Of a stretch of DNA of 64,000 bases, positions 1-63,232 are shown piece after piece. The stretch is from Escherichia coli (GTDB taxonomy: Bacteria > Pseudomonadota > Gammaproteobacteria > Enterobacterales > Enterobacteriaceae): NCBI RefSeq assembly GCF_041248615.1, contig NZ_CP158426.1; one strand, 5' to 3'. The notes beneath the pieces were generated by a model. It did not search any database. It was not told the DNA's origin and saw nothing but the letters and a program-made list of their open reading frames with translations. Every line of letters starts with the position of its first letter. The stretch's first letter is position 1. The position numbers and the translations under genes were made by a program.

Positions 1-856
1 GCACGGCGCTTTCCGTTTGCGGGAAGCGCGACATGCCGTCGATCAACTGCCGCGCCTTTTCCTGCTGTACCGCCATCTGCACACGCTGCTGATTAATGCT
101 TTCTAACGTCTGAGAAATCCCCGCTCCGCCCTGTTGCAGGCTTTGCACTAAGCGGTCCGCCTGCGACGGTTCGGCAAAGGTTTTTAGTGGCATAAACGCT
201 GATTTATCACCATCGGTGCGCACGCTTAGGGTGCTTTCAATGTTGGGCCACTGTTTTTCAGTGGTGGAGAAACTTATACCATCGGCGTTTTGATGCATCT
301 GCACGCCCACGCGGCGCAGGGCGTTGGTCAGCCGCGTTTGATACTGCGCGGCGCTGTCATCCTCAGACAGCATCACCGCCGAAAGCTGAGTCTGCCGCCC
401 GTCAGAGACGCTGAACATCCGCGTTCCCGGCGTGGGATTGTGTACCAGATTCGCCAGATCCGGCGAGTGAAAGCTCACCCGCGCTTCCCCCTGCAACACT
501 GGCTGCAACTGGCGGTCCACCGCACCGCCGGAAAGCGCGGTGCGTTTGTCCAGCATCTGCATCAGCGCCGTACTCTGCGCCTGCCCGCCCTTACGCTGGC
601 TGTGACGGTAATCGAGCAACTGCTGCTCCAGTTGCCCGAGATAATGATCCGCCTGCTGCAACGTGGTGAGCTGGTCGTTAAGCTGCACGCTGTAACGCTG
701 CGGGCGAGTGGTAATCAGCGGCGAGGCCGGATATTCACTCGCCGTCGCCGGGAGTTTTTGCCGCACCGCCTGAGTGGGCGCAACGGTTGACGACGATACC
801 GCAGCGCTATGCGCGCCGCCGGTGGTGAGTGACGAAGAAGTAAGTCCGACCTGCAT
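1..856 (-). CDS. Flag-2 cluster protein, partial (5' part only; gene continues past window start); family not recognised
   Basis: My own translation of the minus strand gives an open frame from ATG at 856 (AGGAG 4 nt upstream, directly after the lfgL stop) to position 1; absent from ORF track because no stop lies in the window; Gln-rich product. Confidence 0.45.
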   Translation of the reverse strand, partial: MQVGLTSSSLTTGGAHSAAVSSSTVAPTQAVRQKLPATASEYPASPLITTRPQRYSVQLNDQLTTLQQADHYLGQLEQQLLDYRHSQRKGGQAQSTALMQMLDKRTALSGGAVDRQLQPVLQGEARVSFHSPDLANLVHNPTPGTRMFSVSDGRQTQLSAVMLSEDDSAAQYQTRLTNALRRVGVQMHQNADGISFSTTEKQWPNIESTLSVRTDGDKSAFMPLKTFAEPSQADRLVQSLQQGGAGISQTLESINQQRVQMAVQQEKARQLIDGMSRFPQTESAV

Positions 857-872
857 ACTGCTCCTGAAAGAG

Positions 873-1802
873 TTAGAGAACGCTGAATAAATTCAACTCA
901 CTCACTTTCGAGTAAGTCTTGAGGGTAGCTTCCATTGCTACTTCCAGTCCGGTAAAGGTGATCGACGCCGGGCCGTAATCGAGATCCTGTAATGAACCAA
1001 TCAACTCATCATTAGAAGTAGAGATATCGGTCTGCGCATCGCTCAGCATCGACATGGTGTTCTGCGTCTCGCCGAGCGACGCAATCGAGGCGTTGAGGTC
1101 GTCCGAGGCGGTGTCCACCACGTTAACTGCGTTCTGAATATCGCTCTGCACCTGCGGATCGGCCGGGTCAACGTTTGGGTCTTGCAACTCCTGCGACAGG
1201 GTATTCAGTGTGTTGAGCACATCTAAATTGCTGCCGAAGAAATCGCTCGCCGCCACGTTGGTATCCACTTCCACGCCGTTCGACACCGTGGTCTGGCGGT
1301 GGTCGCTGTTGCCCTGATAGCTGTAGCTGTCGGTCACGCCATCGCCGTCATCGTCCACCGCCACAATCGGCGGCTGATCGTTGATGGTACCGCCAAACAC
1401 GTAATGCCCGTCTTCGTCCTGATAGTTCAGCGCCGCGACCATTGATTCGGTGAGCGACTCAATATCCTGCCCGAGACTTGCGAGCGAATCGGCGGTATTG
1501 GTACCATTCGCCGCTTCCAGCAGGTCGTCGCGCACCGCCAGCAGGCTGTTGTTGACGCCATCAAGAATTGATTCCTGCTGACTTAACCCCGCCGACGCGG
1601 AGTCGATATTGCTCTGATACTGCTCAATCGCCGACTGTTGGCGGTTCAACTGGGTGATGCGCGTGGCGGCGATCGGGTCATCCGACGGCTGCAAAATCTG
1701 CTTGCCGGTTGCCATCTGCTCGACCACATGCGCCAGATCGCCGGAGAGATTATTAAAACTTTGCGTCATCGAGACGTAGGTTTGTTGGGTGGTTACTCGC
1801 AT
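873..1802 (-). CDS. lfgL: Flagellar hook-filament junction protein FlgL-like (hook-associated protein 3)
   Basis: N-terminus MRVTTQQTY..PSDDPIAA matches FlgL/flagellin N-domain pattern; start moved to ATG at 1802 (GGGAG 9 nt upstream), ORF-track start 1826 would overlap flgK. Confidence 0.85.
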   Translation of the reverse strand: MRVTTQQTYVSMTQSFNNLSGDLAHVVEQMATGKQILQPSDDPIAATRITQLNRQQSAIEQYQSNIDSASAGLSQQESILDGVNNSLLAVRDDLLEAANGTNTADSLASLGQDIESLTESMVAALNYQDEDGHYVFGGTINDQPPIVAVDDDGDGVTDSYSYQGNSDHRQTTVSNGVEVDTNVAASDFFGSNLDVLNTLNTLSQELQDPNVDPADPQVQSDIQNAVNVVDTASDDLNASIASLGETQNTMSMLSDAQTDISTSNDELIGSLQDLDYGPASITFTGLEVAMEATLKTYSKVSELNLFSVL

Positions 1803-1816
1803 TTTCGCGCTCCCGC

Positions 1817-3193
1817 TTAGCTGCACATTTCCAGCACCGAATCGAAAATCTCGGCCCCGGCGGAAATGACTTTCAGATTGGCTTCATAAATTTGTTGATA
1901 GGTGATCAGGTTAACCGCCTCTTCGTCCATGCTGACGCCGCTGACGCTGCTCTGCTGGTTTTGCGCTGCGGAATAGACATTGGACGCGGCATCGACTTCC
2001 GTCTGGTTTTGCTGGCTGTAAATGCCGATATTGCTGATGATTGACGAGCACGCCTGCCCGACCGTCACGCTGCCGAGGTTGGCTATTTCCAGCGGTTCGG
2101 TGGAGATATTGATCAGCGCCTGGAGGTTGTCGCTGTTGCCGCTTTCGTCCGGCGAACTGGAGAACGCCAGCTCATCGGCGGTGATATCCGGGTTAACGGT
2201 CAGCGGGCCATCGGCGTTGCTGGCGTCATAAATAAACAGCGGCTCGCCGGGGTTACCGTTGAGATCGTAGCCCTGCGCCAGCTGGTTGTTAACCGCATCG
2301 GCGAACTGCGACGCCATACTGTTGATGGTGTCGGTCAGCGGCGTCAGCACGTCGTTTTGATAATCAAACAGTGCGCCTAATGAACCGCCGGTGTCGGTAG
2401 TCATCGTCGAGGTGGTGCCAGCGAAAGTCAGCGACATGGTCGGCGTGCCGTCGGCGTTGGTTTCCAGCGCGATGGTCGAGCTTTGCTGCCCGCTCACCAG
2501 CGGTTGACCGTTTTTCAGGGTAACGTTGTAGTTGCCCTGGTCGTCGATATTGACCTGCACATCCATCATCCCGCTGAGTTCTTCCACCATCTGGTCGCGG
2601 GCGTCGTACAGCGCGGAGGCGTTATCGCCGTTGGCTTCGGCCTGAGCGATTTGCTGGTTATAGCTGGCGATGCCGCTGGTGAGCGTGTTGATTTGCGACA
2701 CCATCGCCTGCTGCTGGCTGATGATTTCCGTGCTTTGCGAGTCGATGTAATCCAGCGTGTTGTCGATACGCAGCGACAGCGCCCCGGCTTCGCTGATCAC
2801 CTGCTCGCGCAGGGCGGAATCATCAGGGCTGGTGGTCGCTTCGTTAAGGGCGGCGAAGAAGTTATCGAACCCGCCGCTCAGGCTGCTGTTATCGTCGCTC
2901 AGTACCGCTTCCAGTTGCGTGAGATACCCCTGCTGGGTGCTGTAATAGCCGTAATCGCTGGCGGCATACCACACCTGATTCACCTGATACTGGTTAGAGA
3001 CGCGGCGAATGCTGTCGACCTGCACGCCGTTACCGGCGCTGTTTGGCGAACCGCCGCTGGCACCGATGGTGCTGATCTCCGCCACCTGACGGGTGTAGCC
3101 CGTGGTCATGGCGTTGGCGGTGTTTTGCGCCGTGACGTTCAGCTCCACCTGCGCGGTTGATGCCCCGCTGTAGCCGATGTTAATCATGTCCAT
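1817..3193 (-). CDS. lfgK: Flagellar hook-associated protein 1 FlgK-like
   Basis: 458 aa; conserved FlgK N-terminus (NTANAMTTGYTRQ) and C-terminus (SGVSMDEEAVNLITYQQIYEANLKVI). Confidence 0.9.
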   Translation of the reverse strand: MDMINIGYSGASTAQVELNVTAQNTANAMTTGYTRQVAEISTIGASGGSPNSAGNGVQVDSIRRVSNQYQVNQVWYAASDYGYYSTQQGYLTQLEAVLSDDNSSLSGGFDNFFAALNEATTSPDDSALREQVISEAGALSLRIDNTLDYIDSQSTEIISQQQAMVSQINTLTSGIASYNQQIAQAEANGDNASALYDARDQMVEELSGMMDVQVNIDDQGNYNVTLKNGQPLVSGQQSSTIALETNADGTPTMSLTFAGTTSTMTTDTGGSLGALFDYQNDVLTPLTDTINSMASQFADAVNNQLAQGYDLNGNPGEPLFIYDASNADGPLTVNPDITADELAFSSSPDESGNSDNLQALINISTEPLEIANLGSVTVGQACSSIISNIGIYSQQNQTEVDAASNVYSAAQNQQSSVSGVSMDEEAVNLITYQQIYEANLKVISAGAEIFDSVLEMCS

Positions 3194-3269
3194 GTTGGAT
3201 CCTTACCGGTAAATCGTGCCGGTTAAAAGCGGCGTTAGGTTGGGGATTCTTAAGTTCCTTAAACCGGGT

Positions 3270-3352
3270 GCCGGATGCGGCGTGAACGCCTTATCCGGCC
3301 TACATATGGGCGACTCGTAGGCCTGATAAGACGCGCCAGCATCGCATCAGGC
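3270..3352. repeat. REP/BIME element (two inverted REP units)
   Basis: gccggatgcggcgtgaacgccttatccggcctaca followed by inverted copy gtaggcctgataagacgcgccagcatcgcatcaggc in the flgK-flgJ intergenic. Confidence 0.7.
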
Positions 3353-42119: not shown

Positions 42120-42306
42120 TTTTTTAAGTTCTATTTTGTTCTCCTTAATTATGTAAGGAGTATTTGATCATGTATAAGCAATAAAAAACAGCTTTAGGTA
42201 ATGAGGAATATCTCAATTTTTAAGCATAAAATGCGAATTGTTTAGTACAAAAAAGCAGCGTTACGTGATCTTTCCCTGCACTTCACCCTAACTTTAATTT
42301 AACTTC

Positions 42307-42346
42307 AAGAAGTATTAAGGCCTCAATAGCGAACTTAATACTTCTT
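42307..42346 (-). terminator. AT-rich hairpin downstream of Rhs immunity gene (weak terminator candidate)
   Basis: aagaagtattaag-N14-cttaatacttctt perfect 13-bp inverted repeat. Confidence 0.3.
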
Positions 42347-42354
42347 AAAGAATA

Positions 42355-42732
42355 TCACTCCTGACCAAAATCTTTCCACACTAATGCATGAGACTTTGAT
42401 TTATCACCCAAAAATTTACTTACATCTTTCCAAAGTAAAGAATTGCTATCGGTCGCAGTGACTATTGCCTCTATAAGCCCTGTAGCTACAACTGTGGCCA
42501 ATTCATCATCAATCGAGACCATACCATCTTCGACATGTTTAAATATTTTTTCTCTTTCAATATCACCCATTTCATAAAAATTTTTTACAATCGTTTTTCC
42601 AATCTGAGAGAACAACATAACCACCGGTGGAGTTTCTGGATGCCAGTATTCATTAGCTAATGAGACTGTCTCAGACAAAACAGTGGAAAACGATGCCATT
42701 TTTTCTATATAATTAGCAATATATTGGTTCAT
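42355..42732 (-). CDS. Putative immunity protein for the Rhs C-terminal toxin
   Basis: 125 aa AT-rich ORF immediately downstream of the rhs stop; family not recognised. Confidence 0.55.
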   Translation of the reverse strand: MNQYIANYIEKMASFSTVLSETVSLANEYWHPETPPVVMLFSQIGKTIVKNFYEMGDIEREKIFKHVEDGMVSIDDELATVVATGLIEAIVTATDSNSLLWKDVSKFLGDKSKSHALVWKDFGQE

Positions 42733-45700
42733 TACTTGCCTCCCAAAGCATTCTGTAAATCCTGAAGAACGTTTTCTGCTGCTGCTCGATCCCCTGGAGA
42801 TGCTGTTGGATTCTTATCCAACCAATCCTGTAAAGCCCTTGTATAATCCTGTGCTTTCAATACATGTCCTCTACCACCAACTTTTTCACCTGTGGCCAAT
42901 TCATAACGAACAGCATCTGCTGTGCTTCCACTTCCTACTTTTGCATTTGGCCGATAAAGATCGTCTATAATATTTTTCAAATTTGAATCTGTAACGTCAG
43001 GTTTTCCCATCTTCTGTCGCAATTCATCTTTATACCGTTCATGCTGCATACGATCTCTTGCGCTATTCTCATCTTCTGGTCCCCATCCTCCCGGGCTTCC
43101 CGTACTGCCACCACCCAGGCAGTTCTTCTCTTCCTCCGTCAAATCCTTCCCGACATTTGGATTCTCTTTTGATGAATCATCATTTCCAAACACGCTGGAA
43201 AAAGCACCATAGGGATCTCGCCAGAATTCCATTTGACTTTGTGCATTTAATAATTCGGCTTCACCCTGCATCTCCATACTTTTCTCAATCGCGTCCCCAA
43301 CAGCCTCGCGATTGTTGTATATTATTATACCACCACCAATAACCACCGTACCGACTGCCGCACCGACTAACATCCCCGGAGGGCCTCCTACCGAACCGAT
43401 CTCTGTACCTACTTCAGAACCAGTTCCCATGGCAGTTAATGCTCCTGCGCCCAACGCCGCACTTAATCCCAGCGGATCCAGCCGTTGCACCGGGTTCAGT
43501 GGATACGCATACAGGTTCCATCCCCCCTTCAGCCCAATCGGATCCTGGGTGATATACCTCCCCTGTAGCGGGTCATAGTACCGGTGACGGTTGTAGTACA
43601 GCCCCGACTCCTCATCATACTGCTGCCCCGGCAGACGGAGTGACTGTTGAAGGTGCTGCGTGCTTTCCTCTCCCAGCAGGTTTCCCCACTCGTCATACTC
43701 CCCGCGCCACGCCGTTTCCCCTTCCGGGCTGATAAGCGCCTGCGGCAGCCCACGGTGGTCACAGTGGTAAAGATGAAGTTTCCTCTCCGGGATGTATTCC
43801 GCCTCCAGTTGCGCCGCCATCTGTTCCGCCGTCAACCCACACTGTGCAAGCCACTGCTGGCTTTCTTCACTCACGCTGCCCTGCCGCAGTTCCCGCTCCA
43901 GCCTCCCCAGCATCACCGCCAGCTCCGCCGGTAGCGTCACACCCGTGTCCTCCTGCAACACCTCCGCCAGGCTACGGTGCCGCGCCTTCGCCTGTTCGCC
44001 ATTCTCTGTTTCGATTCTCAGGAGCGGCGTGAAGCTCCCCGGCTGGTATACCGTCTGGATACGCGTGGTGTCGGTCTGTACCGTCGTCAGCCTGTCGCCG
44101 TCCCACCCGTACCAGGTCACCTCCGGTTTACGCGACAGCGACATCCACCCCGTCAGGTCACGCTCCCGCCGCCACACCCGTTTTCCCGTCCGGCGGCCCA
44201 GCGGGTCATAGAGGTAGCGGCTCTCCACCTGTGGCTCGCCGTGCTGTATCCGCGTGTAGAACACCAGGCGGTGCTGGCTGTCGTAATGGTAGTGGTGCGT
44301 CCGCTCGTCGTGCATCCGTATCACCCCTTCCGGGATACGGTCCGTCTTCTCCGCCAGCCTGCCGTATTCATCGTAGCGGTAGACATAGTGCGCATCTTCC
44401 GTGATGCGGTTATCCGGCCACGCCGTGAAGGTGCTGTCCGGGTGCAGTTCCGGGTCCGGCAGCCGGTTTCCTGCCGGGTCCGTCGCATACGGGATATCAA
44501 TGTCCAGGTTCGCTGCCGTGGTGTGGACGCCCGTCAGCCTTCCCGTGTCGCTGTAACGGTACTCCCGGCTCTCCTGCGGGCCGCTGATGCGAATTAGCTG
44601 TCCGTTGTCGTTCCAGTCGTAGTCACGGTCAAGCTGCGGAAGGTTCAGGTGCCTGCTCCGGAGCTGGCCGCTGGTATTCCAGGCGGTGGCAAGCTCATAT
44701 GCCTCCCCGCCGAAGCTGCGGGCCGTCTCACGGTGCAGCCGGTCCCGCGTGTACTCGACCAGTGGCGTACCACCCAGCTTCATTCCCGCAAGATAACCGC
44801 TGCCATACGTCAGCCACTCCACCGGCGGCAGACCGTCCGGCTCCTGACGGGTCGCCAGCCCCTGTTCGCTGTACGCGTGCTTCGTCTCATGCTCCCACAG
44901 CATCTCCCCCGTCTCCGGGTTCTCCACCGTCTGCCGTTCGCCCGTCAGGCGGCCTTTATCGTCGTGGCCGTAGTGGACCGCCACACGGTGGCCTTCGCTG
45001 ATATGGCTGATTTCTGTCAGCCAGCCGTGCTCATCATACTGCCACTGCTCCGCCGGGTCGCCGTTCACCGTCCGGTGCGTGATGCGGTCCGACGCATCGT
45101 AATGCCAGAGGGTGATAAGCCCCTCATCTTCACTCTGCGTGAGTTTTCCGGTCAGGTCATAGTGGTAACGTTGCGTCCGCCCGTCAAAGCCGCGCTGCTC
45201 CGTCAGCCTGTCCACCGGGTCATACCGGAACGTGGACTGGCTGCCGTTCTCGTTGGTCAGCACGGTGGTGCGACCGGCGGCGTCATACCCCATGCTGCGC
45301 GTCAGTCCGCCTTCCGTCACACTCACCGGACGCCCGCGTTTATCATATTCGATGGTGCTGCGTTTACCGTCCGGTGATATCGTCGCTGTCAGGTCGCCTG
45401 CGGTGCTGTACTCATAACGGGTTTCACGCCCCTGCGCATCCTTCTGACTGACCAGTTGGCCACGCGGGTTATAACTGCTGTAAGTGCTGATGCCTTCTTC
45501 CCGGTGAACGGCGATTTGTTGACCGTACCGGTCATACTCATACCGCGTCGTGTACCCCGAGCAGTCCGTAAACGCCTGAAGCTGACCGTACCGGTTTCGC
45601 GTTATTCTCCGCATCACCCCGGTTCCGTCTTCCACCGCGCCGGGCAGGCTACTGCGGGGGGAGTCATAAAACCAGCGCGTAATGTTACCGTTGCGCGAGA

Positions 45701-47231
45701 TCTCTTCCGCCAGCCTGCCCTGACGGTCATATTTCCGGCTGCTGCGCAGCCCGTCCGGGTACGTCACTGACGTCAGTTGCAACTGGTTGTTGTAACCATA
45801 CCGTACCGTCCTGCCGTCCGGAAGTATCACTGAAGTCAGCTTTCCAGACGCCATATGCAGCCGATACTCCGTCCGCCGTCCCGCCGCATCCGTCTGCGCC
45901 TTCAGCCTCCCCGCCTCATCATACTCGCTGCGGGTGATGCTCCCGTCCGCATGTTCCTTCTTCACCACCCGCTTCAGGCCACCTTCGCCTTCCGTGTACA
46001 GCACCTCCCGCCTGTTCAGGCTGTCCGTGATGATTACCCGGCTCTCTCCGTACTCAAAGCGGTAGTCCAGCCCCTCCGGGTTGACCTGCTCCGTCACCCG
46101 GCCGGTATCATCATACCGGTAGCGGCTCTCCGGCCTCCCCGCATAATGGTGCGCCACCATCCGCCCGGCGTGCGCCACATCATAAGTAACCCCGCGCACC
46201 TGCGTCCCGCTGCGGTCATACACCGCCCGCAGTTCTCCGCTGGCCGTGTACGTGTAGCGCGCCAGCGGCGCAGTCGGCTGTTCATCCGGGTATGCCGGGT
46301 CGTGTGTCAGCCACACCGCCTCCAGCCGGATACCGTTATCGGCACCGTATTCTGTACCGACGGGCAGCGTATCGGGGAAAACCTGAGAAGAGGAAACAGA
46401 ACGGGGACCGGCAGGGGAAGATAAGGAAGACTCGCGCTGTTTACGGGACGCTTCCGCCCGCTGTGACTGTGTGGTCAGCGCCAGGTGAAAACAGCGGCCC
46501 GCGCCGTCCGTCACCCTGGTGATTTCACCAGCCAGTTCGCCTGCGGCCTCGCGGTGGAAAGTCAGTGAACGCCCGAAGCCGTCCACCACGCCCGTCAGCA
46601 CCCGGTATGCGGGTGGCTCCGGCGGCAACACCTCGTCCACCCCCGGCACCCGCTCCGGCCAGCCGAGTACCAGCCACTGCCCGGTTGTGCTGACAGCCAT
46701 CATATAGGTGTGTGGACTCAGGCGGACCGCTTCCGGCAACGCCCGCCAGAGCCGGGCCAGCGGGTGGCCTTTCTGCTGTTTCAGCACCCCGCCCCGCGCC
46801 AGCCAGAACGACTCGCTGCGGCTGTAGCTTATCTCGCCGGGAAACAGCGGCTCAAAGTGAATGCTCCTGCCGCCGCTGTCGTTGAGTATCAGGCCTTCAT
46901 CGCGTATCTGTAAGCGGATATCGAAGGGGGCTTTCCAGCCGGGACCAAACACCCCCACCGGCGCGGGCGTCCTGGTCCGGTAGCTGCTGTAGGCGCGGAA
47001 AAGAACAAACGGCAGCGGGCCGGACAGTGCCAGGTCGGTTTCAGCAGGCAGCACCTTCGCTCCCAGCAGCGGGTTTACCGGATTACCCTTCTGCTCCTCT
47101 ATCGGGCTGTTGGGACATACCGAACAGGCCACACCGGTTGGCGCACCTATCAGCACCCCTGCTGAACCCTGCACAATATCCAGTCCCTTGCGGGTCATGT
47201 CACCCTGCCGCGCCGCCGGTTTTCCACCCAT
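42732..47231 (-). CDS. rhs: PAAR-domain Rhs repeat protein with polymorphic C-terminal toxin domain (T6SS effector)
   Basis: 1499 aa; N-terminal [15 protein letters not shown] motif, YD repeats, DPxGL demarcation (RLDPLGL) then ~243-aa tip; tip (42735-43463) is markedly AT-rich relative to the core. Confidence 0.9.
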
Positions 47232-47306: not shown

Positions 47307-49448
47307 TCAAAATTGCCGCATATCCGGCATTCCGGGGGGTAAATCTTTCGGCACAGGCGCATCCGGTACAGGTTGTGTGGCACCACAGTTCCAGTTAATC
47401 ACCGGCGCATCACCGTTCACATCCGACTCTCCTTCCAGATGAATGTGCGTACCATTGAGAAATATGCTTCCGTCCTTCGTCAGCACCAACCTTGCCTTAC
47501 CGCAGCAGAGTTCCAGATGCTCACCGGCAGAATAAACTGCTGTTTGTCCGGTGTTTTCCTTCATCGTCTTGCCCACCGAGAAGGTGACGTTATTCCCTAC
47601 ATTGACGCTGTAGCCCATTCCCACCATCAGTGATTTATGCAGCCCTACCTGTGAGGACTGCAACAACGCCACCGAGGTATTCATGATGCCGCCTACCGTC
47701 GTCTGGTAAGCCACGCCCACCGTCAGCGCACGAATGATCCCCACCTTTTCAACCTGGTTTGAACCCACTTTGACAATCTGGTTGCTGCCTACCGTTTCCA
47801 CCTGGTTGACACCAACCGTCTGTATCTGATTAACGCCAATGTTCTGGATCTGGTTATTGGTAACGGTGATCGCCTGGTTGTTACCTATTTTTTCGGCATG
47901 GTTGTTTATCACATCCGTGGTGCGGTTATTCAGCACCTCGGTGTTCATGTTCTTCTGCGCGTGGATGTAGACCTGTTCTTTCCCTGTCGCATCGTCAAAC
48001 TTCAGTTCATTAAACCCGCTGCCCTTATAGGTTTTCGAACGAATGGTCATCTGCGTCTTTGTTCCCGGCAGGCTGCCGGGGGTGCGGTTTTCCTGGTGGT
48101 AGGTACGCCCCATAATAATCGGCTGGTCCGGATCGCCGTTGAGGAAGTCCACAATGACTTCCTGACCCACACGCGGTATCGCCAGGTTGCCAAAGCCGGT
48201 GCCTGCCCACGCCTGTGCCACACGGATCCAGCATGAACTGTCCTGGTTTGACGGGTTATAGCGGTCCCAGTTAAATTTCACCCGCACGCGGCCATGTTCA
48301 TCACAGAAGATTTCTTCTCCTGCCGGTCCCGTCACGACGGCGCTCTGCGGGCCGTCCACCAGCGGTTTCAGCAACGGCTGTGGCCGCCATGTTCTGTCTG
48401 CCGGTATTACCGCAAAGTGGTTATTCAGCGTGGTACCTGAACCCCTGCGTCCCGGCACCGCCTGCGGCTGCTCGCCGTGCAGTTCACTTGCCACCACCTG
48501 CCATTCCCGGTTCAGGTTCGCCTGCGGATGCCCCGTCAGCGCAATTCGCCGTCCCGGCCATATCTCCGGCGAACGGCTTGTTCCGCGCGCCACTTCTGCG
48601 TTGTTTCGCCAGCCATCCATCTGCCAGCAGGCAAAGTTCTGCCCGTGGGCACCCTTGAAACGTCCGGGGTAGTCATACACTTCATACTGTGTGCGCTGGT
48701 AATCCTGGTGCTGGCCTTCCTGATCAAAACGCCCTGCCCAGCCGGGTCGTTTAAAGGTGTAGTCTTTGGTCACCACGGAAGATGGGCGGATTTGTGCGCT
48801 GTAGAGGAACTGGCTGATGCATAGGGTGCTCACCTCGGTACGGGTGTTCGGATTCCAGGGGATCTCAAAGGACTCCGGCAGATAACGCACGGTGTCGCAC
48901 AGGACCAGGCTCTGGTCGGTACTTTTTTGCGCGTGCTCCTCATAAAAGAAGATGCCTTCCTCCGCCGCCATCCGGCACAGGAAATCGTAATCGGTTTCGC
49001 CGTACTGGACACAAAACTCACGGGAAGGATGCGGCTCGCTGAACAGCGGACTCCACTCGGTCACCCCGTTTTCTTTCAGGATCGTCGCGAGTATGCTTTC
49101 GATGTCCTCATTCTGGAAGATACGGAAGTTCTGGCGCAGCCCTGTGCGCCACAGCGGTGGGCACACCTTCATGCTGTACAGCATCTGGTTTTTGTCGTTC
49201 TCCCCCAGTTCAAACCAGGTCACCACACCTTTCACCCGGCGCTGTACGTCATCGCCCTGCCATACCGTCAGGTAGGCCATTTTGTCCAGCACCTGCGCAA
49301 ATTCAAGGGAGAGAAACTGCTGGCTGACCAGAGAGAGATCGAGGGAAAAGAGCGAAGAGAGTGACTGGTTCAGATGAAAGGAGACCACCGCAAACGCGTC
49401 CGGTGGCAGGCCGTCCACTTCCAGCGTGAAACGTAATCCGGTTGACAT
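47307..49448 (-). CDS. vgrG: T6SS spike protein VgrG (TssI)
   Basis: 713 aa; gp27/gp5-like VgrG pattern, position between hcp and PAAR-rhs; GGAGG RBS. Confidence 0.9.
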   Translation of the reverse strand: MSTGLRFTLEVDGLPPDAFAVVSFHLNQSLSSLFSLDLSLVSQQFLSLEFAQVLDKMAYLTVWQGDDVQRRVKGVVTWFELGENDKNQMLYSMKVCPPLWRTGLRQNFRIFQNEDIESILATILKENGVTEWSPLFSEPHPSREFCVQYGETDYDFLCRMAAEEGIFFYEEHAQKSTDQSLVLCDTVRYLPESFEIPWNPNTRTEVSTLCISQFLYSAQIRPSSVVTKDYTFKRPGWAGRFDQEGQHQDYQRTQYEVYDYPGRFKGAHGQNFACWQMDGWRNNAEVARGTSRSPEIWPGRRIALTGHPQANLNREWQVVASELHGEQPQAVPGRRGSGTTLNNHFAVIPADRTWRPQPLLKPLVDGPQSAVVTGPAGEEIFCDEHGRVRVKFNWDRYNPSNQDSSCWIRVAQAWAGTGFGNLAIPRVGQEVIVDFLNGDPDQPIIMGRTYHQENRTPGSLPGTKTQMTIRSKTYKGSGFNELKFDDATGKEQVYIHAQKNMNTEVLNNRTTDVINNHAEKIGNNQAITVTNNQIQNIGVNQIQTVGVNQVETVGSNQIVKVGSNQVEKVGIIRALTVGVAYQTTVGGIMNTSVALLQSSQVGLHKSLMVGMGYSVNVGNNVTFSVGKTMKENTGQTAVYSAGEHLELCCGKARLVLTKDGSIFLNGTHIHLEGESDVNGDAPVINWNCGATQPVPDAPVPKDLPPGMPDMRQF

Positions 49449-49607
49449 AGCAACCTCCGGGTTTAAGGAAAAACAGACAGTTCGCTGTTAAAGCGGCTGT
49501 AACAGTACAGTGTTACGCTTGCGTTCAGGCACGCTACCGCCGAAGTTTCCGGCATCCGCCATCTCCCGTGAACGTAACCCCTTACTGACAACCTTTCTTT
49601 TTACGGC

Positions 49608-49647
49608 GTAATACAAAAACAGCATCCGGCCTAATAGCCGGATGCTG
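49608..49647 (-). terminator. Rho-independent terminator/attenuator just downstream of hcp
   Basis: GC-rich hairpin cagcatccggc-ctaata-gccggatgctg followed on the minus strand by TTTTTGTATT, about 10 nt after the hcp stop. Confidence 0.6.
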
Positions 49648-49657
49648 TTGGCTTAAC

Positions 49658-50176
49658 TTATGCTTCCAGCGGTGCGCGCCAGTCGTCGGCACCGGAGGTG
49701 CCAGACTTGACGTGTTCCCACTCTATTTTGCGGTAGGCCAGTGAAACTTCGAGCAACTGGGTGAACTCGCGTTTCGCCGGATCCTGGCAATGCGGCATAT
49801 GCAGTTTCATATCGACAATCGTCGAATCGGTCAGGCGGGTGGTGAAATAATGCTCCTGTTTGCCTTCCACAGAGGTACGCCACCAGTGAAGTTCAGTGGT
49901 TGGCAGCATTTCGCCGGAGGCCAGTGCGTTGTACATCAGCGGAACAGCTTTGTTCAGCGCCACGGTAAAAATGAACGGCTTGTGAGCACGCTGACCCGCA
50001 GGCTGGCCGGACTGAGGATCGGTCGGGACAGTAACGTTATGCAGGAATTCCTGCACCAGCATCTCGTCTTCGTGCCCCTGCACATAGATGTTGCCGACAG
50101 AATCAGCGGTAAATGCACCTGCAGTAATATTTCCCTGGGTCTGACCAGTGATGGAGATATAACACGGTGTTGGCAT
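49658..50176 (-). CDS. hcp: T6SS tube protein Hcp (TssD)
   Basis: 172 aa; Hcp family pattern. Confidence 0.9.
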   Translation of the reverse strand: MPTPCYISITGQTQGNITAGAFTADSVGNIYVQGHEDEMLVQEFLHNVTVPTDPQSGQPAGQRAHKPFIFTVALNKAVPLMYNALASGEMLPTTELHWWRTSVEGKQEHYFTTRLTDSTIVDMKLHMPHCQDPAKREFTQLLEVSLAYRKIEWEHVKSGTSGADDWRAPLEA

Positions 50177-50474
50177 TTGTAAACTCCTTGTTAACGTGGT
50201 TAATTACTACTTACAATGACCTGCCGTTAATCCCAGACAGGCAGATGCAGCTCACTTCACGGAACCGCATCATTTTTCAGTATTTTTTACATACAAACCG
50301 AGCTAGAATTTACGGTTGTCGTAAAAACTATTTTTAAAATCATTAAATCTCTTATTCAGCAATAAGTTAATAATATATATCTGGATAACCATACCCAACT
50401 ATTCAAAGTCCGTATTGCCTCCATAAAATGGCCAAAGCTGAATCATGAATAAATATTGTATTTATCCTTTCTGA

Positions 50475-50491
50475 ATTATCATTTTGATAAT
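50475..50491. promoter_or_regulatory. Candidate Fur-like palindrome in T6SS divergent control region
   Basis: ATTATCATTTTGATAAT perfect palindrome containing GATAAT/ATTATC hexamers; spacing is non-canonical. Confidence 0.25.
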
Positions 50492-50872
50492 TTTTGAGAT
50501 ATTCCTTAAAAATACCCACTTAATCAATCACAAAACAAATATATAAACAAGCAATCATCAGATTAGCTTATGTTTAATGAAATTATTATATAATTCAATA
50601 AGTTACATAAAAACTCTATATTTAAATTATTGCCATAATACACCTGACGCGAATTTCGAAGGTTCACACAATCTATTTAACGCTTGCAGAATACCTCTCT
50701 TTACGATCGATAAAAAGTCCTTTTCTTATTTATTTTGAAGCGTAGAATGCGGGGTGATGAAGGAGTGGTGATTTTATTTTCACCGCCATTAGGGCGGCAT
50801 TGCCGATATTTTTTTGCGGTACAAATATGCCGTGTTCATGGCCTGTACGAGATAACATGACGGATCACTTTT

Positions 50873-51373
50873 ATGAGCAAAAAATTTGAAGGCAGCGTCG
50901 CGCCTCGCGAGCGTATAAATATATCCTATGTCCCGAAGACGGACGGCCAGACGGCTGAAGTGGAGCTTCCGCTTAACATGCTCGTTGTCGGCGATACCGG
51001 AAATACGCAGGAGACATCCCCACTGGATGAACGTCAGGCAGTTTCCGTTAACAAGCACAATTTCGGTGCGGTGATGGCTGAAGCAGCCATTGGCCTCAAT
51101 TTTACCGTCCCCGCCACGCTGAAGGGAAGCACAACGGACGATGAACTGAATGTGGCGCTGAATATCAAGTCACTGGATGATTTTTCACCGGACAGCGTGG
51201 CCCGGCAGGTTCCGGAAGTTAATAAATTGCTGGAATTGCGTGAAGCACTGACTGCGCTGAAGGGGCCGATGGGCAACCTTCCGGCATTCCGTACCCAGCT
51301 CCAGGCATTGCTGGAAAATGAGGAGTCCCGCGAGCAGTTGCTCAAAGAAATCGGCCAAGTGAGTGGGAAATAA
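50873..51373 (+). CDS. tssB: T6SS sheath small subunit TssB
   Basis: 166 aa; TssB/VipA family pattern; first gene after the AT-rich region. Confidence 0.9.
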   Translation: MSKKFEGSVAPRERINISYVPKTDGQTAEVELPLNMLVVGDTGNTQETSPLDERQAVSVNKHNFGAVMAEAAIGLNFTVPATLKGSTTDDELNVALNIKSLDDFSPDSVARQVPEVNKLLELREALTALKGPMGNLPAFRTQLQALLENEESREQLLKEIGQVSGK

Positions 51374-59642: not shown

Positions 59643-60404
59643 ATGGATGAGGGGTCACTGTCTCTGCCACCATTTACCGGACACCACGAAAAAAGCCAGC
59701 GCGACTATCATCTCGCGCTTCGTGGCAACAGCCTGAATCCGATGATCGACGCAGCCACGCCGCTCCTCGGTATGGTGATGCGCCTTTCAACCATGAACAG
59801 TCAGACGATGCCGGAGCATCTTTTTGCTCAGGTGGTGACGGATGTTCAGGCCGTGGAGCAACTGCTTCAGGAGCAGGGCTACGAACCGGGCGTGATTATC
59901 TCGTTTCGCTACATCCTCTGCACGTTTATTGATGAAGCGGCGCTCGGTAACGGCTGGTCGAACAAGAACGAGTGGATCAAGCAGTCATTGCTGGTCCATT
60001 TCCACAACGAAGCCTGGGGTGGAGAGAAAGTTTTCATCCTGCTGGAGCGCCTGATCCGTGAACCCAAACGTTACCAGGATCTGCTGGAATTTCTCTGGCT
60101 CTGTTTTTCTCTGGGATTTCGCGGGCGCTACAAAGTGGCAGCACAGGATCAGGGGGAATTTGAGCAGATCTACCGCCGCCTGTACCACGTCCTGCATAAA
60201 CTACGCGGCGATGCCCCTTTCCCGCTGTTACACCAGGACAAAAAAACCCAGGGCGGGCGTTATCAGCTCATCAGTCGCCTGACCATTAAACATATTTTTT
60301 GTGGTGGCGTTGTCGTGCTGGCGTTGTTTTACCTGTTCTATCTGTTGCGGTTGGACAGCCAGACGCAGGACATCCTGCACCAGCTAAACAAATTACTTCG
60401 ATAA
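59643..60404 (+). CDS. tssL: T6SS membrane protein TssL (DotU-like, no peptidoglycan-binding extension)
   Basis: 253 aa; cytoplasmic DotU-like domain plus single C-terminal TM helix. Confidence 0.85.
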   Translation: MDEGSLSLPPFTGHHEKSQRDYHLALRGNSLNPMIDAATPLLGMVMRLSTMNSQTMPEHLFAQVVTDVQAVEQLLQEQGYEPGVIISFRYILCTFIDEAALGNGWSNKNEWIKQSLLVHFHNEAWGGEKVFILLERLIREPKRYQDLLEFLWLCFSLGFRGRYKVAAQDQGEFEQIYRRLYHVLHKLRGDAPFPLLHQDKKTQGGRYQLISRLTIKHIFCGGVVVLALFYLFYLLRLDSQTQDILHQLNKLLR

Positions 60405-60412
60405 GGACGTTT

Positions 60413-63232
60413 ATGATCCAGATTGATCTTCCCACGCTGGTAAAACGGCTTAACCTGTTCTCCCGCCAGGCGCTGGAGATGGCCGCCTCTGAATGTATGA
60501 GCCAGCAGGCAGCGGAAATTACCGTCAGCCATGTGCTTATTCAGATGCTCGCCATGCCACGCAGCGACCTGCGGGTTATTACCCGCCAGGGCGATATTGG
60601 CATGGAAGAGTTGCGCCAGGCGCTGACGGTGGAGAACTACACAACTGCCCGTTCTGCGGACAGCTACCCGGCATTTTCCCCGATGCTGGTTGAGTGGCTG
60701 AAAGAGGGCTGGCTGCTGGCGTCGGCTGAGATGCAGCACAGCGAATTGCGTGGCGGCGTGTTGCTGCTGGCCCTGCTGCATTCGCCGCTGCGTTATATAC
60801 CGCCTGCTGCCGCCCGGTTGTTGACCGGCATTAACCGTGACCGTCTGCAACAGGACTTTGTACAGTGGACACAGGAGTCGGCGGAATCAGTCGTGCCGGA
60901 TGCAGACGGTAAAGTCGCAGGCACACTGACGGACGCTGCTGACACCCTGCTTGCCCGCTACGCCAAAAACATGACCGCAGACGCCCGTAACGGCAGGCTT
61001 GACCCGGTACTGTGCCGCGACCACGAAATCGACCTGATGATCGACATTCTCTGCCGCCGCCGCAAGAACAACCCGGTGGTGGTGGGCGAAGCAGGCGTGG
61101 GTAAAAGTGCCTTAATCGAAGGGCTGGCGCTGCGCATCGTGGCAGGCCAGGTGCCGGACAAACTGAAAAACACCGATATCATGACCCTTGACCTAGGCGC
61201 ATTGCAGGCCGGGGCGTCGGTGAAGGGCGAATTCGAAAAACGCTTCAAGGGGCTGATGGCGGAGGTCATTTCCTCTCCGGTGCCGGTCATTCTGTTTATT
61301 GACGAAGCACATACCCTGATTGGCGCGGGCAACCAGCAGGGCGGGCTGGATATCTCCAACCTGCTCAAACCGGCGCTGGCGCGCGGCGAACTGAAAACCA
61401 TCGCCGCCACCACCTGGAGCGAATACAAAAAATACTTCGAGAAAGATGCCGCCCTGTCGCGCCGCTTCCAGCTGGTGAAGGTCAGCGAACCCAACGCCGC
61501 CGAAGCCACCATTATTCTGCGTGGTCTGTCGGCGGTCTATGAACAGTCTCACGGCGTGCTGATTGATGATGACGCCTTGCAGGCCGCAGCAACGCTGAGC
61601 GAACGTTATCTCTCCGGGCGTCAGTTGCCGGACAAAGCCATTGATGTGCTGGATACCGCCTGCGCCCGCGTCGCCATTAACCTTTCCTCGCCGCCGAAGC
61701 AAATCTCGGCGCTGACCACTCTGAGCCACCAGCAGGAGGCGGAAATTCGCCAGCTTGAGCGCGAGCTTCGCATCGGGCTGCGTACCAACACCTCACGGAT
61801 GACCGAGGTGCTGGTGCAGTACGATGAAACGCTGACGGCGCTGGATGAACTGGAAGCGGCCTGGCATCAGCAGCAGGCGCTGGTCCGGGAGATTATCGCG
61901 CTGCGCCAGCAGTTGCTGGGCGTGGCAGAAGACGATGCGGCGTCGTTGCCGGACGCAGATGCCGCGGAGGATACGCCGCCAGAGTCAGAGTCAGAGTCAG
62001 AGTCAGAGTCAGAGTCAGAGTCAGAGTCAGAGTCAGAGTCAGAGTCAGAACAGGATAATACCGGTGCCGTACCGGCTGATGAGGCCGACAGAGAACAGCC
62101 GGAAGAGACCGCTGAAACAGTTTCCCCGGTACAGCGGCTGGCCCAGCTCACTGCCGAACTGGACGCCCTGCATAACGACCGGTTGCTGGTCTCCCCGCAC
62201 GTCGATAAAAAACAGATTGCGGCGGTGATTGCCGAATGGACCGGCGTGCCGCTCAACCGCCTGTCGCAGAATGAAATGTCGGTCATCACCGACCTGCCGA
62301 AATTGCTGGGCGACACCATCAAAGGCCAAGACCTGGCGATTGCCAGCCTGCATAAGCATCTACTGACCGCACGCGCCGACCTGCGTCTTCCGGGACGCCC
62401 GCTCGGTGCGTTCCTGCTGGCTGGCCCCAGCGGTGTGGGTAAAACCGAAACCGTCCTGCAACTGGCAGAGCTGCTCTACGGCGGTCGCCAGTACCTGACC
62501 ACCATCAATATGTCCGAATTCCAGGAGAAACACACCGTCTCGCGGCTGATTGGTTCGCCTCCGGGCTACGTTGGCTACGGTGAAGGCGGCGTACTGACCG
62601 AAGCGATTCGCCAGAAACCCTACTCGGTAGTACTGCTCGATGAAGTGGAAAAAGCGCACCCGGATGTGCTCAACCTGTTCTACCAGTCGTTCGATAAGGG
62701 CGAAATGGCAGACGGTGAAGGCCGCCTGATTGACTGCAAAAATATCGTCTTCTTCCTGACGTCCAACCTCGGCTACCAGGTAATAGTCGAGCACGCCGAT
62801 GACCCGGAAACCATGCAGGAAGAACTGTATCCGGTGCTGGCCGACTTCTTCAAACCTGCCCTGCTGGCGCGTATGGAAGTGGTGCCGTATCTGCCGCTGT
62901 CGAAAGAGACGCTCGCCACCATTATCGCCGGAAAACTGGCCCGTCTGGATAACGTGCTGCGCAGTCGCTTTGGTGCAGAAGTGGTCATTGAACCGGAAGT
63001 GACGGACGAAATCATGAGCCGCGTCACCCGCGCGGAAAACGGCGCGAGGATGCTGGAATCGGTCATCGATGGCGACATGCTACCGCCGCTCTCGCTGCTG
63101 CTGTTGCAGAAAATGGCGGCTAACACGGCGATTGCCCGGATTCGGTTGTCGGCGGTGGACGACGCATTTACGGCAGACGTGGAAGATGCTCAGAACGACG
63201 AGTCCGTCACAAAGGATGAAACGGTTTTATGA
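60413..63232 (+). CDS. clpV: T6SS AAA+ ATPase ClpV (TssH) carrying an internal (Glu-Ser)11 repeat
   Basis: Two AAA+ modules (GEAGVGKS, GPSGVGKT Walker A); start set to ATG 60413 (AAGGA upstream, just after tssL stop). Confidence 0.95.
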   Translation: MIQIDLPTLVKRLNLFSRQALEMAASECMSQQAAEITVSHVLIQMLAMPRSDLRVITRQGDIGMEELRQALTVENYTTARSADSYPAFSPMLVEWLKEGWLLASAEMQHSELRGGVLLLALLHSPLRYIPPAAARLLTGINRDRLQQDFVQWTQESAESVVPDADGKVAGTLTDAADTLLARYAKNMTADARNGRLDPVLCRDHEIDLMIDILCRRRKNNPVVVGEAGVGKSALIEGLALRIVAGQVPDKLKNTDIMTLDLGALQAGASVKGEFEKRFKGLMAEVISSPVPVILFIDEAHTLIGAGNQQGGLDISNLLKPALARGELKTIAATTWSEYKKYFEKDAALSRRFQLVKVSEPNAAEATIILRGLSAVYEQSHGVLIDDDALQAAATLSERYLSGRQLPDKAIDVLDTACARVAINLSSPPKQISALTTLSHQQEAEIRQLERELRIGLRTNTSRMTEVLVQYDETLTALDELEAAWHQQQALVREIIALRQQLLGVAEDDAASLPDADAAEDTPPESESESESESESESESESESESEQDNTGAVPADEADREQPEETAETVSPVQRLAQLTAELDALHNDRLLVSPHVDKKQIAAVIAEWTGVPLNRLSQNEMSVITDLPKLLGDTIKGQDLAIASLHKHLLTARADLRLPGRPLGAFLLAGPSGVGKTETVLQLAELLYGGRQYLTTINMSEFQEKHTVSRLIGSPPGYVGYGEGGVLTEAIRQKPYSVVLLDEVEKAHPDVLNLFYQSFDKGEMADGEGRLIDCKNIVFFLTSNLGYQVIVEHADDPETMQEELYPVLADFFKPALLARMEVVPYLPLSKETLATIIAGKLARLDNVLRSRFGAEVVIEPEVTDEIMSRVTRAENGARMLESVIDGDMLPPLSLLLLQKMAANTAIARIRLSAVDDAFTADVEDAQNDESVTKDETVL
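61982..62047 (+). repeat. Perfect hexanucleotide tandem repeat (GAGTCA)x11, in frame within clpV
   Basis: Eleven consecutive GAGTCA units counted directly; translated as ESESES... Confidence 0.95.

Follow-up and report, generated by a model that had tools for sequence, protein, structure and literature searches.

The closest described system to the one analyzed here is the hcp3-vgrG3 intergenic region of EHEC O157:H7 strain EDL933, which was named h3R and was reported to function as a terminator that also stabilizes the hcp3 mRNA (Vazquez-Lopez et al., Microbiol Spectr April 2026, PMC13141884). In wild-type EDL933, the transcript spanning the hcp3-vgrG3 junction was undetected by RT-PCR. Deletion of region I of h3R resulted in more junction RNA and in a doubling of the downstream mCherry reporter, and the hcp3 mRNA and the Hcp3/GFP protein were diminished to 6% and to one-half, respectively. 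The VgrG3 protein was seen only after the joint deletion of regions I and II. When an inducible promoter was swapped in upstream of hcp3, the vgrG3 mRNA increased, and the junction RNA was described as "slightly present" upon expression from a plasmid. The h3R-mCherry reporters exhibited little promoter activity, and no tested condition induced them more than 2-fold. The RT-PCR result was interpreted by the authors as evidence for two separate operons, with a promoter predicted by software in region II. No comparative or covariation analysis was included, and neither RfaH nor ops was mentioned (PMC13141884).

Two further systems are relevant. In the sci-1 cluster of EAEC, a consensus ops element is located directly downstream of hcp, and both ops and RfaH are needed for the genes behind it (bioRxiv 10.1101/2025.02.08.637259). 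For the EDL933 cluster, this preprint states only that it "carries ops elements"; terminators and hairpins are not mentioned there. In the T6SS4 of Yersinia pseudotuberculosis, mutation of a stem-loop after hcp4 lowered only the hcp4 mRNA and left the downstream transcripts unchanged, and the authors regarded it as a protective 3′ loop and not as a terminator (PMC12503267).

The DNA analyzed here is a stretch of 64,000 nucleotides from E. coli, denoted as the window, and all coordinates refer to it. The window contains the T6SS-2 cluster, in which tssB is divergent from hcp, vgrG, and rhs. It is 100% identical to strain 7/2 over 1 kb, and the T6SS-2 locus is present in 2169 of the 5426 complete E. 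coli genomes. The gene for the T6SS tube protein, hcp (tssD), is found at 50176..49658 on the minus strand and encodes 172 residues (Pfam PF05638, E = 5e-31), with the TAA stop codon at 49660..49658 on the same strand. The Hcp protein is annotated in RefSeq as WP_001142958.1 and is identical in strain 7/2 and EDL933. The initial annotation had placed vgrG and rhs downstream of hcp in the same orientation, and both genes are indeed on the minus strand. The gene for the spike protein, vgrG (tssI), extends over 49448..47307 and encodes 713 residues (Pfam PF05954, PF04717, and PF22178). The rhs effector gene downstream of it extends over 47231..42732 and encodes 1499 residues (Pfam RHS_repeat, RHS, and DUF6531); its product is labeled "RHS element core protein" in RefSeq. 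A Shine-Dalgarno sequence, GGAGG, was read directly at 49454..49458 on the minus strand, 5 nt ahead of the ATG of vgrG at 49448, and either AGGAGG or GGGAGG is kept ahead of vgrG in the orthologous loci. On the other side of hcp, tssB (50873..51373) and tssC are encoded on the plus strand. The divergent intergenic region between hcp and tssB (50177..50872) comprises 696 nt and is AT-rich, with 29% GC at 50200-50599. The transcripts that arrive at the terminator described below originate in this region, which in EDL933 is described as a bidirectional promoter repressed by H-NS (PMC13141884).

The initial annotation had proposed a strong terminator within 49605-49660, composed of an 11-bp GC-rich stem and a U-run approximately 10 nt after the hcp stop codon. 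A hairpin is present within these limits at 49649..49618 on the minus strand, which also carries hcp, vgrG, and rhs. The GC-rich stem, the U-run, and the position directly after the stop codon were borne out, and two of the numbers have to be revised: the stem has 14 pairs and not 11, and it begins 8 nt past the hcp TAA, in untranslated RNA. The hairpin is 32 nt long and corresponds to the published region I of h3R. Its sequence on the minus strand is AACAGCAUCCGGCU-AUUA-GGCCGGAUGCUGUU, where AUUA is the tetraloop, followed by UUUGUAUUAC. The stem contains 13 Watson-Crick pairs and one apical U·G pair, and 8 of the 14 pairs are G-C. The U-tract was read directly at 49619..49610 on the minus strand; its first two U residues belong to the stem, where they close the base by pairing with AA, and with these two A-U pairs counted in the run reads UUUUUGUAUU. 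In the opposite direction, the plus strand has GGCTTAACTT and not a run of T's after the stem, and no plus-strand gene converges on the hairpin. The signal is therefore one-directional and acts on the hcp transcript.

The stability of the hairpin was evaluated with RNAfold. The folding energy is −28 kcal/mol, compared with −13.95 ± 3.02 kcal/mol for 200 dinucleotide shuffles (z = −4.65), none of which folds as stably. When both strands of the whole 64 kb were scanned, this was the strongest combination of hairpin and T-tract, with a ΔG of −22.6 for the G/C-closed part of the stem versus −14.0 for the runner-up site. Sites that conform to a lenient terminator consensus are not enriched in the surrounding 11 kb (16 found versus 11.8 ± 3.3 expected), and the hairpin between hcp and vgrG ranks first among the 16. 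A search of 5 kb against Rfam at E ≤ 1 returned no match, and a search of 251 nt at E ≤ 10 returned sub-threshold matches only.

The hairpin and its surroundings were compared with h3R of EDL933. Both are found at the same locus, a T6SS-2 cluster adjoining yafV-ivy-fadE; the genes are syntenic and the Hcp proteins are identical. The 14-pair stem, its start at +8 after the stop codon, and its length of 32 nt are also identical. The two sequences differ at 6 of the 231 intergenic positions, and the sole change in the hairpin is in the loop (AUCA in EDL933 and AUUA in the window). Since the loci are nearly identical, the experiments conducted with EDL933 apply to the hairpin in the window. Termination and mRNA stabilization by the hairpin region have thus been shown in the literature for EDL933, and the terminator reported here for the window confirms a result that is already known for this locus. 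The initial annotation had also expected the hairpin to lower transcription into vgrG and rhs. This expectation is upheld by EDL933, where there is no RT-PCR product for the junction and where deletion of the hairpin region produced more junction RNA and twice the mCherry signal (PMC13141884). The downstream gain from deletion of the hairpin alone is only approximately 2-fold, which indicates that regions II and III also limit vgrG. Two features were unforeseen by the initial annotation: the stabilization of the upstream mRNA and a conserved ops element approximately 70 nt further on. The contributions that are new here are the covariation, the generality across Hcp loci, and the ops element.

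Conservation of the hairpin was first considered within the species. The intergenic region is single-copy: each of the 2762 matching E. coli genomes has it at exactly one place. Approximately 550 genomes carry a second allele, 75% identical to the first. In two stem pairs of this allele, both partners are substituted (G-C to A-U and G-C to U-A), and the T-tract is unchanged. The comparison was then extended by a scan for the Hcp protein in one genome per species, which provided 80 loci with Hcp sequences that are 81-100% identical, from the Enterobacterales, Vibrionaceae, Aeromonas, Halomonadaceae, and others. In 55 of the 80 loci, vgrG is directly downstream of hcp. Using strict terminator criteria (ΔG ≤ −8, at least 5 T in 8, and no more than 100 nt from the stop codon), a terminator-like site was detected on the hcp strand of 44 of the 80 loci. 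The opposite strand has one in 2 of the 80 loci, and shuffled sequences have one in 11 of 2400 cases. Of the 55 loci with vgrG directly downstream, 29 have such a site on the hcp strand. The comparative data show hcp followed by a predicted terminator to be a general design across the Gammaproteobacteria.

A homologous hairpin of the form CAGC...GCUG UUUUU was identified in 26 distinct sequences from approximately 12 enterobacterial genera. When these sequences were aligned on the 14-pair structure, 93.4% of the cells were paired, compared with 36-59% for slid controls. Compensatory changes are observed in 8 of the 14 pairs, and the covariation score was reached by none of 500 shuffles. The number of G·U cells exceeds that of A·C cells (28 versus 6), which argues that selection has acted on the RNA of the hcp sense strand and not on a DNA palindrome. 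All 26 sequences have 5-8 T among the 9 nt that follow GCUG. The published work is without covariation support of this kind, and the result is new but confirmatory. The initial annotation had regarded the element as a Rho-independent terminator. That assignment is sustained by the canonical anatomy (a G+C-rich stem-loop with a short loop, a U-tract on the sense strand, and a position after the stop codon), by the compensatory changes in the stem, and by a T-tract that is kept and is strand-specific across the 80 Hcp loci.

Alignment of the whole intergenic region revealed a conserved non-coding block of approximately 90 nt downstream of the hairpin, at 49591..49503 on the minus strand, that extends from TTGTCAGTAAGGGGTTACG to CGTAACACTGTACTG. 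The block is 67-95% identical to the window across approximately 12 genera. The corresponding values are 53-73% for the third codon positions of hcp and 16-55% for the flanking spacer and the vgrG-proximal leader, and thus the block is more conserved than the synonymous sites of hcp. It is present after hcp even where the next gene differs from vgrG. The block probably corresponds to region II of h3R. A 24-codon frame led by an ATG within the block was considered and rejected, since Buttiauxella lacks its ATG and its frame is disrupted by indels of 2, 4, and 8 nt. Indels that are not multiples of 3, together with the loss of the ATG in some genera, indicate that the block is not a conserved open reading frame. 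A second candidate, the 45-residue open reading frame at 49625..49488, is the only one that overlaps the hairpin; in the second E. coli allele, it is interrupted after 6 codons.

A conserved secondary structure was also sought in the block. The RNAalifold energy is −12.1 kcal/mol and the covariation term is −0.31, and the block is too conserved for covariation to show. For the same reason, a four-helix model drawn by hand is uninformative with respect to covariation, pairing 89.8% of the cells versus 89.2% in shuffles. A consensus scan for sigma-70 promoters on the minus strand from 49617 to 49449 returned none. Inspected by eye, the intergenic region does not fit the spacing of a sigma-54 promoter (TGGCAC-N5-TTGC) or of a LexA box.

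A permissive Rfam search provided the connection to ops. The JUMPstart family (RF01707) aligns with the block just on 12 nt at its center, GGCGGUAGCGUG, with a score of 12.7 bits (E = 1.9) that is below the gathering score of 35 bits. This sub-threshold match led to the ops element, the recruitment and loading site for RfaH, for which the 12-nt consensus on the non-template strand is GGCGGTAGNNTG. The sequence GGCGGTAGCGTG at 49541..49530 on the minus strand, in the center of the block, agrees with this consensus at every position and has the sense (non-template) orientation with respect to vgrG. The window contains no other exact match, and 0.43 matches with no more than one mismatch are expected by chance. 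The element follows the terminator by approximately 70 nt and precedes the vgrG ATG by 81 nt, with approximately 6.7 kb of vgrG-rhs beyond it and no conserved open reading frame across it. Among the 80 Hcp loci, GGCGGTAGNNTG is found 115-133 nt past the hcp stop codon in 16, and one further locus has it at +332. The 463 kb of these loci outside that interval, used as background, contain none. In Dickeya, Pectobacterium, and Siccibacter, the place of ops is occupied by a different covarying stem-loop.

Other T6SS loci were examined for the same combination of elements. In the sci-1 cluster of EAEC 042, there is a 10-bp GC hairpin with a T-run 9 nt past the hcp stop codon and upstream of ops, and ops1 is 30 nt ahead of clpV. 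The order of hcp, terminator, and ops is therefore the same as in the T6SS-2 cluster, but sci-1 belongs to another T6SS family, its hcp and hairpin are non-homologous to those described here, and the downstream gene is clpV and not vgrG. The order hcp-terminator-ops thus recurs in two T6SS families with non-homologous hcp genes and hairpins. The link between terminator and ops was made neither in the h3R paper nor in the EAEC preprint. In CFT073, a ChIP signal for RfaH was detected at the T6SS and PAAR-vgrG loci once H-NS and StpA were removed (PMC9765446). The leader of the CFT073 PAAR-vgrG locus contains GGCGGTAGCGTA. The RfaH-bound genes c1882-c1889 were considered as a homologue of the block and rejected, since they constitute a PAAR-vgrG island with a leader of its own that carries this sequence. 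By analogy with these T6SS loci, and from the exact match to the consensus, RfaH would be expected to load at the ops element at 49541..49530.

An intra-operon Rho-independent terminator is also found in hlyCABD, a virulence operon controlled by RfaH, in which the genes upstream and downstream of the terminator are differentially expressed. In that operon, ops is upstream of the terminator, and so the RfaH-modified polymerase passes it. Here, in contrast, ops is downstream of the terminator, and RfaH would act only on those polymerases that are already past. With ops in this position, RfaH cannot account for the read-through itself. The control of vgrG-rhs probably has two parts, the terminator and the ops element beyond it.

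The reading that we favor, and consider likely, is that the 3′ UTR of hcp contains, in this hairpin and its U-tract, a leaky intrinsic (Rho-independent) terminator and that the polymerases that read through it load RfaH for the expression of vgrG and rhs. RNA polymerase would start in the AT-rich divergent promoter region between hcp and tssB and transcribe hcp. The 14-bp hairpin would form 8 nt past the stop codon, and the U-tract would release most of the transcripts. The outcome would be an abundant monocistronic hcp mRNA that is shielded by its 3′ hairpin from 3′-to-5′ decay. A minority of the polymerases would read through and, approximately 70 nt later, reach the perfect ops element, pause, and load RfaH. 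These polymerases would then be carried by RfaH through the long vgrG-rhs operon, which would be prone to H-NS and Rho. The net effect would be a high ratio of Hcp (tube) to VgrG and Rhs (spike and effector), with expression of the spike and effector being additionally conditional on RfaH.

The principal alternative is the one adopted by the EHEC authors, according to which the hairpin is a complete operon boundary that ends essentially all hcp transcripts, and vgrG-rhs is transcribed from an intergenic promoter of its own. This would agree with the undetected hcp3-vgrG3 junction product in wild-type EHEC and with the promoter predicted by software in region II (PMC13141884), and the conservation of approximately 60 nt upstream of ops is also compatible with it. 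However, the consensus scan of the minus strand from 49617 to 49449 provided no sigma-70 promoter for such a transcript, and the h3R-mCherry reporters had little promoter activity and were never induced more than 2-fold (PMC13141884). The vgrG3 mRNA rose upon induction of a promoter upstream of hcp3, and a trace of junction RNA was present upon plasmid expression, both of which argue for read-through (PMC13141884). The same conclusion is suggested by the spacer, which has no recognizable promoter, and by sci-1, where essential genes behind an equivalent hairpin depend on the upstream promoter. We therefore regard a complete boundary as unlikely. In the favored reading, leakiness of the terminator would be the main route to vgrG.

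A second alternative is that the hairpin does not terminate transcription and functions only as a 3′ stabilizer, or decay barrier, for a processed hcp mRNA, as for hcp4 of Yersinia. The loss of only the hcp4 mRNA upon mutation of the Yersinia stem (PMC12503267) and the decrease of hcp3 mRNA to 6% upon deletion of region I in EHEC (PMC13141884) are both consistent with this function, as is the presence of a hairpin without a T-tract in several Hcp loci with short hcp-vgrG spacers (L021, L023, L026-L029, and L031). A pure barrier has no need of a T-tract, yet the T-tract is kept in all 26 homologous sequences and is strand-specific in the larger sample (44 versus 2 of the 80 loci). Deletion of the region in EHEC also raised the junction RNA and doubled the downstream reporter (PMC13141884). 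The T6SS-2 stem thus differs from that of Yersinia hcp4 both in its conserved U-tract and in the read-through that follows its deletion, and a role confined to stabilization is quite improbable. The perfect 14-bp inverted repeat in an intergenic position might also suggest a dispersed palindrome (REP/BIME-like), a protein-bound DNA palindrome, or a chance inverted repeat, but these are effectively excluded by the finding of exactly one copy per genome in 2762 E. coli genomes where REP/BIME elements have many, by compensatory substitutions with a G·U to A·C count of 28 to 6 that fits RNA pairing on one strand, by the failure of any shuffle to fold as well, and by the absence of a match in Rfam.

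The leaky terminator with ops beyond it may represent a more general arrangement. We propose, as a possibility that we consider evenly balanced, that the hcp genes of enterobacteria are followed by a two-part module, in which a leaky terminator sets the tube-to-spike ratio and the stability of the hcp mRNA and an ops element for RfaH is located approximately 70 nt further on. The module is seen in two non-homologous forms, in the T6SS-2 cluster described here and in the T6SS-1 of sci-1. If the proposal is correct, expression of the spike and effector genes would be low and processive and would require available RfaH. The inhibitory region II of h3R, which probably contains ops, would then be the ops pause and RfaH-loading site. 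Such a pause in region II would explain the failure of strong promoters alone to switch on VgrG3.

The terminator offers an explanation of how a single promoter can supply Hcp subunits in the hundreds for each VgrG trimer. The T6SS-2 of EHEC resists activation in vitro, and strong promoters yield Hcp and no VgrG or Rhs. The presence of a perfect, deeply conserved ops element between the terminator and vgrG suggests that the supply or loading of RfaH may be the missing requirement. The coupling of terminator and ops may thus explain why replacement of the promoter alone fails to activate the T6SS-2 of EHEC.

A conserved non-coding block of approximately 90 nt lies downstream of the hcp terminator on the minus strand (window 49503-49591). 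In a comparison over approximately 12 genera, this block is more strongly conserved than the synonymous sites of hcp. A perfect ops element, GGCGGTAGCGTG, is located at its center (49530-49541, minus strand) and, as judged from its sequence, is a putative RfaH-loading site. The flanks of the ops element within the block are likewise conserved, over approximately 60 nt upstream (TTGTCAGTAAGGGGTTACG...GGGAGATGGCGGATGCCGGAAAC) and 35 nt downstream. A 45-aa ORF is found at 49488-49625 (minus strand), with its ATG within the 3' arm of the terminator hairpin. The hypothetical gene EDL933_0238 is cited for EHEC strain EDL933 (PMC13141884), and this ORF is probably its counterpart. The hcp-vgrG intergenic region has a second allele in E. 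coli (75% identical), in which a stop cuts this ORF off after 6 codons, so that it very probably does not represent a gene.

Other ops-like sites were also identified. In the second E. coli allele (strains N96, PS1Phumofeces1, and 95-3322) the block carries a one-mismatch variant of ops, GGCGGTAGCGTA, and the same variant appears in Pseudocitrobacter. It is also the sole ops-like site in the leader of the CFT073 PAAR-vgrG island (c1882-c1889; L092:15750-15765), which is RfaH-ChIP-positive (PMC9765446). Within the window, GGCGGTAGCATG at 63076-63087 (minus strand) matches the ops pattern GGCGGTAGNNTG. This match is antisense within a plus-strand T6SS gene (ORF 60299..63232) and is probably a chance occurrence.

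The ops element is absent from loci of Dickeya, Pectobacterium, Siccibacter, and Symbiopectobacterium and from one Enterobacter locus (L041, L045, L046, L050, L063, L065, L076, L080, L082, L084, and L087). These loci contain an additional stem-loop between the hcp terminator and vgrG, approximately +30 to +90 past the hcp stop, which is bordered by CTGAG...CTGAGYRCA. The stem consists of 15 pairs, 8 of which show compensatory changes (alignment A6), and no Rfam family was matched. A third architecture is found in L021, L023, L026-L029, and L031, where the hcp-vgrG spacer of 72-83 nt lacks both the T-tract and ops. A strong hairpin immediately 3' of hcp is followed by the vgrG start approximately 30-40 nt further on, and this hairpin is similar to the "protective loop" of the Yersinia T6SS4 (PMC12503267).

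The GC content falls to 29% in the divergent hcp/tssB intergenic region (window 50200-50599), a value characteristic of the bidirectional promoter bound by H-NS that has been reported in EDL933 (PMC13141884). AT-rich DNA also occurs at the 3' tip of rhs and in the next ORF (42200-43000, minus strand), with 33-40% GC compared with 58-66% in the rhs core. This ORF encodes 125 aa (42732..42355, minus strand), and an AT-rich tip with such an ORF is usually seen where a toxin tip and an immunity gene have been swapped. Beyond both, strain 7/2 carries ISAs1 remnants.

The hcp-clpV intergenic region of sci-1, the T6SS-1 of E. coli 042, spans L090:1673-1840. A 10-bp GC hairpin with ATTTTTATTTTTT begins 9 nt past the hcp stop and is absent from the text of the preprint that defined ops1 (bioRxiv 10.1101/2025.02.08.637259). 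Another long hairpin separates it from an ops element identical to that of the window (L090:1800-1811), 30 nt upstream of clpV. The order of elements in this unrelated cluster thus equals that in the T6SS-2 of the window.
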